DNA of 64,000 nt from Oligoflexales bacterium (GCA_045106415.1 JBGCEP010000028.1:1-64000); one strand, 5' to 3'; positions 60,050 to 63,572 are shown, counted from the stretch's first letter. Notes: a model not told the origin generated them from the letters alone. Translations and numbers: made by a program.

Positions 60050-61204
60050 ATGAAAATTCTTATTTTAGATGATCAGAAATATTACCTTGAGTCTCTTGTC
60101 GATGGTTTAAATGATCTTAACATTGAAATACAAACAACAACAGATCCAAAAAAAGCTTTGAAATTGGTTAAACAACACTCCCAAGATTATGCTGTTTTAT
60201 TAATAGATATCAATATGCCTATTATGAATGGTTTTGAAGTCATACAAAAAATAAATAATTTATCACTAGAATATTACCCTCCTGCTATTTTTTTAACCGC
60301 TGTTCATAATAATCAACAAAATATTCATTATGGCTACAGTAATGGAGCAGTAGACTACTTATTAAAACCCGTGGATTTATTTATCCTTCAATCAAAAATT
60401 TCTATCTTTACAAAACTTTATAAAAGTAGAAATGAAAACAATTTGTTAAATCAACAGTTATCACAAAAAATTTCTGAGCTTGAAAATGCAAATAAAAATC
60501 TACGATCATTTTCTTCTGTCGTAGCAAATGATTTAAAAACTCATGTCCGACAAATCTATAGTTTTAGCGAAATTATGCTGAATAAGAATTTAAAAAAAGA
60601 ATGTTCACTTGATTATTTATCCCGAATTCAACAATGCACATCTCAAATTAAACGAATTATTCATTCTATCAGCATCTTTAGTCAGTATGGATTAGAAAAT
60701 ATTGATAAAAAAACTTCTCACTCTGAAGAAGTCATACAAGAAGGAAAAAAATTTATTCAAAAAGAAATCAATAAATTTGATGTGGAAATAAATATTTCAA
60801 ATCATAGTTATCTTTATTGTGACAAAGAAAAAATGTCTATTGTTTTTCAGAACATCATACAAAATGCTATAAAATATAAAAATCCGAAAAATTCTCCGGT
60901 AATCAACATAAACATTCAACAAGAACCAAAAAAAACAACCATATCATTTACAGATAATGGATTAGGTATCCCAGAAAATAAAACAAAAGAAATATTTAAA
61001 TTTATGGAAAGATTTCATAATCCAGAAAAAATTCCAGGATCTGGCACGGGTTTAACAATATGTGAGCATATTGTTTCAATGCATGGTGGACATATTTGGG
61101 TAGAGTCAGAGCTTAATCATGGAAGTACTTTTTTCATTACCCTTCCAAAGCATCAAGAAAATATTTTGCTTGATAGCAAAAAGCCATCAAGCAAAATAGA
61201 CTAG
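60050..61204 (+). CDS. REC-HisKA-HATPase hybrid kinase with non-canonical H-box
   Basis: Intact REC (DD, D, T, KP); ANDLKTHV in place of SHDLKxP; NAIKY, DNGLGI, GSGTGL. Confidence 0.85.
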   Translation: MKILILDDQKYYLESLVDGLNDLNIEIQTTTDPKKALKLVKQHSQDYAVLLIDINMPIMNGFEVIQKINNLSLEYYPPAIFLTAVHNNQQNIHYGYSNGAVDYLLKPVDLFILQSKISIFTKLYKSRNENNLLNQQLSQKISELENANKNLRSFSSVVANDLKTHVRQIYSFSEIMLNKNLKKECSLDYLSRIQQCTSQIKRIIHSISIFSQYGLENIDKKTSHSEEVIQEGKKFIQKEINKFDVEINISNHSYLYCDKEKMSIVFQNIIQNAIKYKNPKNSPVININIQQEPKKTTISFTDNGLGIPENKTKEIFKFMERFHNPEKIPGSGTGLTICEHIVSMHGGHIWVESELNHGSTFFITLPKHQENILLDSKKPSSKID

Positions 61205-61344
61205 TTACAATGATCATCGCACTCTTCACAACAATCACAACTTGCATATTCGCAGGTGTCACACCCGCAATGAGTAACAGAAAATCCTGGGTTCGCAGGG
61301 ACCATTAACGCGACCAACGATAGTTTTTTCAAAAGGTTCTTCAT
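61201..61344 (-). CDS. Unannotated 47-aa signal-peptide + Cys-rich metallothionein-like peptide
   Basis: MKNLLKKLSLVALMVPANPGFSVTHCGCDTCEYASCDCCEECDDHCN; GAGGAG SD 6 nt upstream; 8 Cys and 2 His in the last 23 aa. Confidence 0.78.
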   Translation of the reverse strand: MKNLLKKLSLVALMVPANPGFSVTHCGCDTCEYASCDCCEECDDHCN

Positions 61345-61403
61345 CTCAAACTCCTCTAAATAAATTATTTATAAACCTTCTCACTCAAAGGCTTTTCATG
61401 AAC

Positions 61404-61433
61404 TATACTCAAATGATGACGAAAGTGTGACAT
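61404..61433 (-). promoter_or_regulatory. Putative ECF-sigma promoter, copy 1
   Basis: Minus strand ATGTCACA-N17-GTATA, identical to copy 2. Confidence 0.65.
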
Positions 61434-61439
61434 AGTGAC

Positions 61440-61934
61440 TCATAAAAATTTAAATCTCGCTTTAACAGCTTCATCTAAAAGAACTCCCCACGACTTAAAG
61501 CTTATATAAGCACTTAATGACCACATGAAAACATGCGGAACATCATTCATAACAGATCCGTTCATGTAAATTAAAAAAGCAAAAAAATTTAAAAATATAA
61601 AGAGAATAAAATGATAACTCCATATCACATGGCGGAATAAAAAACGGGAACAGATCCCTTTCAGTATCACGATAGGGGCCAATGTAAAAATCATTCCGCA
61701 CAAAATAGAGCAGCGGATAGATCCATACCTAGAATGAACCATATGCATCGTATCTTGTGCCATACGACTTAGCCCAAGACCAAATTGTCCACAAAAAATC
61801 ATAGATAAAAAGCCACCAAGAAAAATAGATAAACCTAGGCGCCATGTCACAGACCAAACACTAGGGTGCAGGTCTTGATGCACATACTTATAAATTTCTT
61901 CAACTTTAGTTTGATCAATTTTAGGAGCAACCAT
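61440..61934 (-). CDS. Four-TM membrane protein with Cys/His/Met cluster, candidate anti-sigma factor
   Basis: CGQFG, MHMVH, CSILCG; divergent from csoR-ECF sigma. Confidence 0.55.
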   Translation of the reverse strand: MVAPKIDQTKVEEIYKYVHQDLHPSVWSVTWRLGLSIFLGGFLSMIFCGQFGLGLSRMAQDTMHMVHSRYGSIRCSILCGMIFTLAPIVILKGICSRFLFRHVIWSYHFILFIFLNFFAFLIYMNGSVMNDVPHVFMWSLSAYISFKSWGVLLDEAVKARFKFL

Positions 61935-61959
61935 AATTTATCCTAGATGATTCTAAATA

Positions 61960-61989
61960 TATACACTCATCGCTCAAAATTTGTGACAT
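61960..61989 (-). promoter_or_regulatory. Putative ECF-sigma promoter, copy 2
   Basis: Minus strand ATGTCACA-N17-GTATA, 25 nt upstream of ATG 61934. Confidence 0.65.
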
Positions 61990-62001
61990 TTGACAAAAAC
62001 T

Positions 62002-62031
62002 TTGACCCACCATACCCCCCAGGGGTATATT
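62002..62031 (+). promoter_or_regulatory. sigma70 promoter with CsoR/RcnR operator in the spacer
   Basis: TTGACC-N18-TATATT enclosing ATACCCCCCAGGGGTAT (62012-62028). Confidence 0.8.
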
Positions 62032-62037
62032 GTTATC

Positions 62038-62319
62038 ATGGATAAAAATGTATTTGCAAAAAAAACATCAGCAAGATTAAACCGAGCACTAGGTCAAGTC
62101 AAAGCAATTGGCAGCATGATTGAGAATGATGATTATTGTATTCATATCATCAGGCAAATTCGCGCTGCTAAATCAGCTTTAAATGCTCTTGAGCTTCTTT
62201 TACTAAATAGGCACATGCAAACTTGTGTTCGCACAGCATTTCAGCATGAAGATCCCGTCACCTCAGAAGAAAAAATTGATGAAATCATTTCTCTACTTAA
62301 AGAAGCACGAAAGTCATGA
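62038..62319 (+). CDS. csoR: CsoR-family metal-sensing repressor
   Basis: RL.R..GQV..I..M, DYC...I.QI.A, H...CV (Cys-His-Cys ligand set); start at ATG 62038. Confidence 0.88.
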   Translation: MDKNVFAKKTSARLNRALGQVKAIGSMIENDDYCIHIIRQIRAAKSALNALELLLLNRHMQTCVRTAFQHEDPVTSEEKIDEIISLLKEARKS

Positions 62320-62825
62320 ATAAAAAAAACTGCACGAACGAAGATCTTTTAAGGTTTTATTCTCAAGGAGATTTTGCGAGTTTTGATATTTTTTTCAAAA
62401 GAAACAGTCATATGATTTTTATGTTTATCTTCAGCAGAAGTGGAAATAAAGCTGACTCAGAAGATATTCTCCAAGAAACATTTTTTAAAATCCATAAGTA
62501 TATTCACACATTTAACCCAGAAAAAAATGCATTGAATTGGGTTTTCACAATCGCTATGAACACTCTTATCACACACCATAAATCTCGAAACAAACACCTA
62601 CCTCACTTTGATGAAATAAGTGCATCTTCTCCACACAGTCAAATTGAAGCTCGCAATGAATTACAAAAAATATTGGCAACATTATCTCATCACGAATCTT
62701 CTTTAATCATAGAAAAATTCCTTCTTGGAAAAGACTCTCATGAGATGAGTGAAACTTTTAAATCACCTGCTCCAAATATTCGAAAAAAATTATCTCGCCT
62801 TCTACAAAAAATCAGGTACTCATAA
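62316..62825 (+). CDS. ECF RNA polymerase sigma factor
   Basis: Region 2 DSEDILQETF...WVFTIAMN and region 4 HTH; ATGA-coupled to csoR. Confidence 0.9.
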   Translation: MNKKNCTNEDLLRFYSQGDFASFDIFFKRNSHMIFMFIFSRSGNKADSEDILQETFFKIHKYIHTFNPEKNALNWVFTIAMNTLITHHKSRNKHLPHFDEISASSPHSQIEARNELQKILATLSHHESSLIIEKFLLGKDSHEMSETFKSPAPNIRKKLSRLLQKIRYS

Positions 62826-63068
62826 GCAATACCAACTAGAAAAAAGATCAGCAAAAAAACTCACTCACATCTCTAAACAAGTTTACTTCATAATTCTTAA
62901 ACAACATACAACACCTTAATAATTAAAGAGAAAATAAGACTTTCGTCAAAAACTTGCCAATACCTCAAGTCATCGTTTAAGTTATGTTAAACGATTTGAG
63001 CTTTTCAGCCGATAGGGCTGTTAGGTTCAATTATATCTTTTCAATCCTTTGAATCTTAGGAGCTTTCT

Positions 63069-63572
63069 ATGTTAAAAAATTTTCTTGCTATTTTATGTAT
63101 CTTTGTAAGTCATCTTGCTTATGGGCTTAACTGCAGCGTCACCATTGAAGCTAATGATATGATGCGTTATAGCAGTGAAACCATGTCTATCAACAAAAAA
63201 TGCAAAAATGTTAAAGTGATTCTTAAAAATGTGGGCAAACTTCCTAAGGTTGCTATGGGGCATAATTGGGTTCTATCAAAGACATCAGATATGCAAGCTG
63301 TTTCAACAGAGGCTTTAAAAGCAGGTGCAGCAAAAGAATACACTCCCGAAGGCTCTAAAGTTATTGCAAAAACAAAACTCCTAGGGGGTGGTGAGCAAGA
63401 TGAAGTGAGCTTTAATGTTGAAAAGTTAAATAAAGATGAACAATACACCTATTTTTGCACATTCCCCGGTCATTCTTCTCTAATGAAGGGTACTTTTAAA
63501 TTCACAGAGACAGGAGAGTTACATGGCAAATCAAACCAAAAAACCAATGGAGATCACTCCCGAAAAGCTTGA
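63069..63572 (+). CDS. azu: Azurin (type 1 blue copper protein)
   Basis: Signal peptide, C..C disulfide pair, MGHNWVL, FCTFPGH...M ligands. Confidence 0.93.
   Translation: MLKNFLAILCIFVSHLAYGLNCSVTIEANDMMRYSSETMSINKKCKNVKVILKNVGKLPKVAMGHNWVLSKTSDMQAVSTEALKAGAAKEYTPEGSKVIAKTKLLGGGEQDEVSFNVEKLNKDEQYTYFCTFPGHSSLMKGTFKFTETGELHGKSNQKTNGDHSRKA

Follow-up and report, generated by a model that had tools for sequence, protein, structure and literature searches.

The repressor CsoR normally represses efflux genes directly. In a 64,000-nucleotide stretch of DNA from an Oligoflexales bacterium (GCA_045106415.1 JBGCEP010000028.1:1-64000; the whole stretch is called the window here), however, a csoR gene overlaps the gene of a sigma factor of the extracytoplasmic function (ECF) class, and the genes for a membrane protein and for a small cysteine-rich peptide stand divergently beside the pair. 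What does this repressor control, what does the sigma factor transcribe, and what would the products do? The original prediction for this DNA proposed a two-tier copper response, in which CsoR gates the sigma factor, the sigma factor drives a membrane sensor and an exported metallothionein-like peptide, and an azurin encoded downstream belongs to the same system. The five genes that it named between 61201 and 63572 are all present at their positions. We read four of them, with moderate confidence, as a stress module that responds to soft metal, most likely copper, and is held by two locks, and we place the azurin outside it. The genome of the bacterium (G000; the window is on contig C28) comprises 2.95 Mb with a G+C content of 39.8% and is 93.8% complete. 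It was compared with a set of 131 genomes of the class Oligoflexia, loci of relatives being fetched around the membrane genes; homologues in public sets carry the label Bdellovibrionota.

CsoR, a CsoR-type operator and the coupled sigma gene

The product of csoR (62038..62319, plus strand) matches PF02583 with 85 bits against a cut-off of 22.8. Its residues C34, H59 and C63, together with Y33, align with the Cu(I) ligand positions of the best solved relatives, the CsoRs 2hh7 and 4m1p, and a second-shell glutamate is aligned in both comparisons (E82 against 4m1p and E78 against 2hh7). An x-C-H-C pattern with tyrosine is given as the copper-sensor fingerprint of the CsoR family in the accessible part of PMC11672702. 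If translation starts at 62038, there is no histidine before residue 36; the protein is without the N-terminal histidine of the nickel sensors and without the asparagine wedge of CstR. The gene is present in a single copy in the genome. The ECF sigma gene (62316..62825, plus strand; TIGR02937 over its cut-off) overlaps csoR by 4 bases (ATGA), on the basis of which the sigma factor is translationally coupled to csoR; the coupling of a Cys-His-Cys repressor to an ECF sigma factor was thus predicted correctly.

A CsoR-type operator, a palindrome of a C-tract and a G-tract between ATAC and GTAT, was located by pattern match at 62012..62028, as had been predicted. It overlaps a sigma70-like promoter of the csoR-ECF pair (TTGACC-18-TATATT; 62002..62031, plus strand), which agrees with the consensus at 10 of 12 positions and ties for the best of 18 such sites, where 19.2 are expected by chance, so that the promoter is not above chance when taken alone. 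No Shine-Dalgarno sequence precedes the ATG at 62038, and the transcript is probably leaderless, starting at that ATG. An upstream start of csoR at TTG 61990 was rejected, because it would precede both promoter and operator. The strict operator pattern has one other match in the genome, inside a coding sequence, and an operator-like site at C70:47472 was dismissed as lying inside a gene; the site at 62012..62028 is the only intergenic CsoR-type operator of the genome. Furthermore, no P-type ATPase of any class, HMA domain, copA, copZ or multicopper oxidase was found in the genome at its 93.8% completeness. With no match to P-type ATPases, HMA domains or multicopper oxidases, the sigma operon is the only visible target of CsoR.

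In the class, csoR occurs in 24 of the 131 genomes, mostly, on our reading of the loci, beside copA-like, efflux or oxidase genes, and the same operator pattern precedes csoR in four of them (G057, G061, G096 and G040). G057, which belongs to another family, has two operators, one at csoR and the other immediately ahead of the ECF gene, and an ECF promoter precedes a small exported gene and the membrane gene. In G061, csoR lies two genes upstream of the membrane gene, and there is one operator. We regard control of the csoR-ECF pair by CsoR as very likely, with binding of the repressor deduced from the operator and its overlap with the promoter.

A conserved ECF promoter and its two predicted genes

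The sigma factor has 169 residues and ends after region 4; its one cysteine is at position 6, and it has neither a cysteine-rich tail nor any other C-terminal extension. It is the only ECF-sized protein among five TIGR02937 matches in the genome. Three of the others would, judged by size, be RpoD, FliA and RpoH, and the fifth is a fragment below the cut-off, so this sigma factor is apparently the only ECF of the genome.

Two sites of the form TGTCACA-N17-GTATA lie on the minus strand of the window, P1 (61960..61988) 25 bases before the membrane gene and P2 (61404..61432) 59 bases before the start of the peptide gene; the -35 box of P1 is 23 bases from the CsoR operator, and P2 is the top site of a genome-wide matrix scan. 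Such sites are expected 0.02 times in the window, and two were reached in 0 of 100 shuffles; genome-wide there are three against 0.29 expected, the third being antisense within a gene. The promoter-like motif had been called identical at the two genes, which holds for both boxes but not for the 17-base spacers. When intergenic regions of the genome were scanned with one mismatch allowed, P1 and P2 were the only perfect matches, and this is the outcome of the regulon scan that the original prediction had called for. Candidates at C8:37812 and C51:13453 were rejected because both are inside genes, as was one at C44:3029, which has a spacing of 16 and is in a hairpin between rpsO-like and pnp-like genes. 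As there is no other perfect intergenic site, the regulon here apparently comprises two genes, those of the membrane protein and the peptide.

The spacing of the two boxes is sharply conserved in relatives. In 599,904 bases from 49 loci, TGTCACA-Nx-GTAT gave 29 matches at x = 17 and 0-2 matches at each other spacing from 10 to 25, and in 25 further loci, with the last base relaxed, there were 11 matches at spacing 17 and at most 5 at any other. These sites stand mostly 14-100 bases upstream of outer-membrane efflux, RND-sized, P-type-ATPase-like, DUF3347, sigma or membrane genes, and a P1-type site occupies the same position before the membrane gene in six genomes (G002, G029, G068, G072, G076 and G077). 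On this comparative evidence TGTCACA-N17-GTAT is a conserved ECF promoter, and we are highly confident that the sigma factor of the window reads P1 and P2, recognition being deduced from the sites and their conservation.

The gene behind P1 (61440..61934, minus strand) encodes a protein of 164 residues with a CGQFG motif. Hydropathy and charge predict four membrane helices with the N-terminus inside and C48, C75 and C79 at the outer face. The AlphaFold2 model has a pLDDT of 94.7, yet it gave no Foldseek match at E<=0.001; in a further fold search the best Z was 6.9, to unrelated helical proteins, and the best feature score in the ESM Atlas, 0.89 to YWFCY proteins, is below the usable level. 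A homologue search with the single sequence returned only the protein itself, and a single-protein scan of genome contigs returned 41 stretches, none of them confirmed. The family comprises 96 relatives among 50%-identity representatives and 295 in a larger database, is found in 60 of the 131 genomes, and is not covered by Pfam or NCBIfam, no family of which takes more than 2 of 83 members. In an alignment of 83 rows, C48 is kept in 81, C75 and C79 in 79 each and W138 in all 83, while H64 and H67 are partly kept. Of the cysteine, histidine and methionine residues for which the protein had been singled out, the cysteines are accordingly conserved and two histidines partly so; the methionines are not. 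No member (0/83) matches PF06532 (NrsF), a family with no match in the genome, and alignment of the family with 6 NrsF proteins gave an hhalign probability of 0.22%.

An ECF gene is present in the fetched locus for 72 of 77 family genes, within 700 bases for 69 of them, and 2 of the 5 genes lacking one sit at contig ends. In 50 of the 77 cases the membrane gene is directly downstream of the ECF gene, which is the layout of classical sigma/anti-sigma operons. Two subtypes can be told apart. The long subtype has an extra N-terminal helix and stands in tandem behind the sigma gene; the short subtype, to which the window protein belongs, is without this helix and is mostly uncoupled from the sigma gene, and the arrangements of other kinds (13 convergent, 4 divergent and 5 upstream) all involve short-type genes or fragments. 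Both subtypes retain the three cysteines, a DLxP motif and W138. At its deepest point the sigma tree (41 of 42 rows, one G029 copy being left out) divides along the same line as the two subtypes, with support of 99/95, and within the tree the window sigma is the sister of the G002 sigma. The membrane protein is probably the anti-sigma factor of this sigma, and we think it likely that it inhibits the sigma factor. The prediction of a sigma-driven membrane sensor stands as regards its place behind P1, but the protein is best read as the sigma factor's own anti-sigma and not as a separate output.

Several observations were made beside these. Long-type membrane proteins carry the extra N-terminal helix and their sigmas a broken helix before region 4, and short-type pairs show the reverse; proline occurs at alignment positions 110-122 in 0 of 21 short-type and 10 of 21 long-type sigmas (loci L032-L038 and L082-L098). 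A helix exchange between sigma and anti-sigma is a possible explanation. In five loci, a gene that lies ahead of the membrane gene under the ECF promoter encodes an unnamed exported protein of about 135 residues, which has His-Gly at its N-terminal start and contains a GFxxMPGAFHTE-like motif; this protein is absent from the window, the one copy scanned has no Pfam match, and it is a candidate periplasmic metal chaperone or co-sensor. Genome G064 has seven membrane-family matches, and in two of its loci small exported His- and Lys-rich two-cysteine peptides lie under the same promoter.

The gene behind P2 (61201..61344, minus strand) encodes the predicted eight-cysteine peptide. Besides a promoter of its own, the gene has a strong Shine-Dalgarno sequence and, directly 3' of its stop codon, a terminator-like hairpin (61162..61198, minus strand; a 16-pair stem and then a T run) that lies within the 3' end of a converging kinase gene and would end the transcript. 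The 47 residues run from a basic start through a hydrophobic core to an acidic tail, some 25 residues long, with 8 cysteines and 2 histidines, and include one aromatic residue. Small size, richness in cysteine (8 in about 25 residues) and few aromatics are traits of metallothioneins. The peptide has no Pfam or NCBIfam match at E<=0.1, the SmtA/BmtA and MymT families and the bufferin models included, and no usable match in the ESM Atlas. Three homologues at 35-39% identity have 6 invariant cysteines and share the basic start, the hydrophobic core and an acidic tail with 7-10 cysteines and no lysine or arginine. Export by a signal peptide is suggested by these sequence features and by the homologues, and no MNIO gene stands beside any of the four peptide genes, nor is there a bufABC gene order. 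We consider it fairly probable that the peptide is an exported metal binder.

The homologue in G059 is behind TGTCACA-N17-GTAG, divergent from a long-type sigma/membrane pair. G012 has two copies: one (contig C451) is the first gene of an operon that also encodes a more distant ECF and an unrelated membrane protein, with TGTCACA-N16-CTATA in front, and the other is without such a motif. The unrelated membrane protein of the G012 operon, which bears cysteine and histidine, is a candidate for a second anti-sigma family using the TGTCACA -35 box.

Azurin and metal handling outside the four genes

The azurin gene (63069..63572, plus strand) scores 163.8 bits against TIGR02695 (cut-off 105.1), and the ligand motifs GHN and C-x-F-P-G-H-x-x-x-M are present; at 63504-63572 the frame extends 22 residues beyond the family model, and it overlaps a DUF2452 gene by 50 bases. 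Ahead of the azurin gene, at a distance of 74 bases, is a palindrome with a GTTTAA-N6-TTAAAC core (62973..62994), probably the operator of a MarR-family regulator and outside the CsoR/ECF system. This core occurs four times in the genome against 0.35 expected, all within C28:62973-69364. The other copies are at C28:68440, 69288 and 69343; two are intergenic, with a MarR-family gene on one side and on the other an operon encoding a DCC1-like protein, a dehydrogenase, a DUF1722 protein and a photolyase, and one is inside the dehydrogenase gene. The core thus links azurin and the DUF2452 gene, over 6.4 kb, to the MarR gene and the photolyase/DUF1722/dehydrogenase/DCC1-like operon, a stretch that is a probable light or oxidative-stress regulon including azurin. 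Azurin is found over the cut-off in 47 of the 131 genomes, and neither the ECF promoter nor the CsoR operator was present at any of 16 other azurin loci checked (of 19; three in which no frame was parsed were left out). Most likely, the azurin is regulated separately, within the predicted MarR/photolyase regulon, and the inclusion of azurin in the copper system is not borne out.

In relatives, the neighbours of the sigma/membrane pair include metal efflux pumps, CopA, CopZ-like domains, oxidases (a multicopper oxidase among them) and a BufA2/BufB cluster. Judged from these neighbourhoods, the usual output of the family is efflux, and sequestration is a property of this genome and not of the system. 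The prediction of sequestration in place of efflux agrees with the lack of copA, copZ and oxidase genes here, but does not carry over to the relatives. The full set of csoR, ECF, CxQFG membrane protein and cysteine-rich peptide, for which a synteny search had been suggested, was seen in no other locus examined.

Two further metal systems are encoded in the genome. A heavy-metal RND pump, closer to ZneA/CzcA than to CusA, scores 620 bits against ZneA and 569 against CusA and has no ECF motif upstream; its operon (C6:56465-66563) includes several unnamed exported proteins, and similar-looking genes are divergent from csoR in G057 and G028. A bufferin-type cluster (C10:13890-15439) consists of a DUF2282-like precursor gene, recognised by eye, directly upstream of an MNIO gene, and a DUF2063 gene. 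It likewise has no ECF motif upstream, and an insertion-sequence remnant lies upstream of it; the cluster may have lost its original promoter.

Next to the module in the window, an orphan receiver-histidine kinase gene (60050-61204) converges on the peptide gene, with overlapping stop codons. Its G+C content is 27.5% against 39.8% for the genome, which may reflect separate acquisition. Positions 55883-59756 hold what we take to be a histidine-utilisation operon (urocanase, imidazolonepropionase and formimidoylglutamase).

The proposed circuit, its alternatives and known systems

In the circuit that we propose, CsoR would sit on the operator over the sigma70-like promoter when metal is absent and keep csoR-ECF expression low; cytoplasmic Cu(I) would lift CsoR, and the sigma factor would be made by translational coupling. 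The sigma factor would then transcribe the genes of the membrane protein and the peptide from TGTCACA-N17-GTAT. The cytoplasmic N-terminal helix and loop of the anti-sigma may hold the sigma factor, and its three outward cysteines may sense envelope metal or thiol oxidation and release it. As the sigma factor drives its inhibitor and not itself, the loop would feed back negatively, and for output to last, metal would have to be present on both sides of the inner membrane. The peptide would be exported by Sec and bind metal in the periplasm as thiolate clusters, standing in for the efflux genes placed under the same promoter in relatives. That the signal is copper seems likely to us. More tentative is a strict AND gate between the two compartments in which the peptide would be the only effector; equally tentative is the AND-gate reading in its full form, with wiring that arose at least twice in the class, an unmodified Sec-exported metallothionein and periplasmic capture without a P-type ATPase.

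Several results weigh against this circuit. An operator precedes the sigma gene in only 2 of 72 loci (94 upstream regions and 25 loci, in which some sigma genes sit at contig ends), namely the window and G057. The sigmas of these two are not sisters (p-AU 0.002), which would require two gains or many losses of the gate. The cascade from repressor to sigma factor, as originally predicted, thus finds support in the operator and in an operator of the same kind in G057, but it is an exception among the loci. In G002, the closest relative (59% complete), there is no csoR match or operator, and the sigma gene follows the gene of an RND pump without an operator. When JGI metagenomes were scanned for the back-to-back promoter together with the operator, 7 chance matches came up, none near csoR, a sigma gene or the membrane gene. 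Moreover, 6 of 16 genomes of the family are without a P1B ATPase match and G057 keeps CopA beside its gated sigma, and the gate and the loss of efflux are therefore not linked. The genome itself has a bufferin cluster and a CzcA-like pump outside the regulon. The peptide family is sparse, being found in 3 of 131 genomes, all of them profile seeds, and in one further database protein. Finally, the window membrane protein is of the subtype that is without the extra N-terminal helix and mostly uncoupled from the sigma gene, so that contact with the sigma factor may be lost or changed.

This last point leads to a reading with only one lock, in which CsoR controls the sigma factor and the short-type membrane protein no longer works as an anti-sigma released by metal: it would simply damp the response, or be an effector, for instance a thiol or metal sink in the membrane. 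The ExxF-like helix at the N-terminus is missing from short-type proteins. Short-type genes and fragments account for each of the 22 convergent, divergent or upstream arrangements and often sit under the ECF promoter inside efflux operons, and three short-looking genes on contigs that are long enough have no ECF in the fetched locus. However, the cysteines, DLxP and W138 are common to both subtypes, short-type genes track their own sigma clade, and short-type sigmas keep the helix before region 4 unbroken, which suggests an interface that was changed and not lost; we find a single lock unlikely. The wiring could also be as proposed and the signal another one (Ag, Hg, Cd, or thiol or oxidative stress), with the peptide as a disulfide-bonded redox buffer. 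The periplasm is oxidising, and sites made of cysteine only do not fix a metal. As read by eye, csoR in G057 is divergent from a gene resembling one in the Czc-like operon of G000, and NrsF-type systems respond to oxidative stress too, according to the accessible part of PMC7826278. Against a different signal stand the Cu(I) fingerprint of the repressor, the relatives' neighbours, which are mostly copper genes, and the cysteine counts of the peptides, which run from 7 to 10 with odd counts included and suit thiolate clusters better than fixed disulfides; this reading has, in our estimate, a low probability.

A role of the peptide as an orphan precursor, which the genome's MNIO would modify in trans into a bufferin-like metallophore, is less probable still. 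All three peptide-bearing genomes encode an MNIO, and the accessible part of PMC12452194 describes MNIO substrates with Sec signals and 1-18 cysteines, some of whose precursor genes are unlinked to an MNIO gene. Yet none of the four peptide genes has an MNIO gene beside it, no bufferin model matches the window peptide, the genome's MNIO has its own DUF2282-like precursor directly upstream with no ECF motif, and G057 and G061 have MNIO genes without the peptide. It is also rather improbable that azurin joins the copper output by read-through from csoR-ECF: the gene is on the same strand 243 bases downstream, with no terminator-like site on the plus strand in the gap, and its His/Cys/His/Met ligands are kept, but it has the palindrome of the MarR/photolyase cluster and is common in a class where the other loci checked (16/16) have neither motif.

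Among known systems, judged from the accessible parts of the sources, the closest in logic is SigF-NrsF-bufferin of Caulobacter vibrioides (ECF16; PMC11626156, PMC7826278). Both pair an ECF with a multi-pass, cysteine-bearing membrane partner in a context of copper stress, and in both the output is, for the window by prediction, a Sec-exported cysteine-rich peptide that binds periplasmic metal; in one relative, a BufA2/BufB cluster lies about 2 kb from a sigma of the same family as the window's. However, the partner in the window has 4 helices and 3 conserved cysteines against 6 and 2 in NrsF, the promoter is TGTCACA-N17-GTAT and not GTAACC-CGTA, the peptide is without an adjacent modifying enzyme, and the sigma gene is under CsoR whereas that of SigF is under itself. 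The CsoR-copZA operons and the RicR regulon of Mycobacterium tuberculosis (PMC10141476) share the x-C-H-C repressor, the C/G-tract operator and autoregulation, and RicR controls the metallothionein MymT (PMC10141476, PMC7558416). They differ in that these repressors act on their outputs directly and MymT is not described there as exported; here the sigma factor is the only apparent target, and neither copA nor copZ was found.

CnrYXH of Cupriavidus metallidurans (ECF291; PMC7826278) senses envelope metal by means of an ECF/anti-sigma pair whose output is RND efflux, which also holds for most relatives of the window module. CnrY, however, needs the separate sensor CnrX and the system senses nickel and cobalt, whereas sensor and anti-sigma are apparently one protein here and no CnrX-like gene is present. 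CorE of Myxococcus xanthus (ECF238) is likewise a copper-linked ECF, from a related lineage, but it senses metal by its own cysteine-rich tail and without an anti-sigma; the window sigma, with one cysteine and no such extension, is not of this type. ECF41, ECF103, ECF250 and ECF288 (PMC7826278) have a TGTCAC -35 box, and the -10 of ECF250 is similar (GTTATATA). Compared by description, these groups differ in their SnoaL or cysteine-rich extensions or single-pass anti-sigmas and in other -10 boxes, and for ECF41 in particular, the window sigma is without the C-terminal SnoaL extension and its -10 is GTAT, not CGTC. No four-helix, three-cysteine partner is described for the four groups in the accessible part of PMC7826278, whose supplementary tables may list these sigmas; 'Bdellovibrio' and 'Oligoflex' are absent from the supplement text searched. 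On these comparisons, the module works like SigF-NrsF-bufferin, but it falls outside ECF16, ECF41, ECF238 and the bufferins. In the literature searched, outside which most subscription papers lay, neither a CsoR-to-ECF cascade nor a description of the membrane family was found.

Altogether, the locus points to an ECF/anti-sigma family in the Oligoflexia and other Bdellovibrionota for which we found no description, and to a wiring, a CsoR whose only target would be a sigma factor, that we did not find in the literature searched. SigF-NrsF-bufferin already has the logic of an ECF, a cysteine-bearing membrane partner and an exported cysteine-rich peptide, and the gate is a rare one. Since the promoter is sharply conserved, a metal regulon becomes predictable in 60 of the 131 genomes of the class. 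With four small genes, the module bears on how cytoplasmic and envelope copper may be integrated in one circuit, and on whether an unmodified cysteine-rich peptide can bind copper in an oxidising periplasm.

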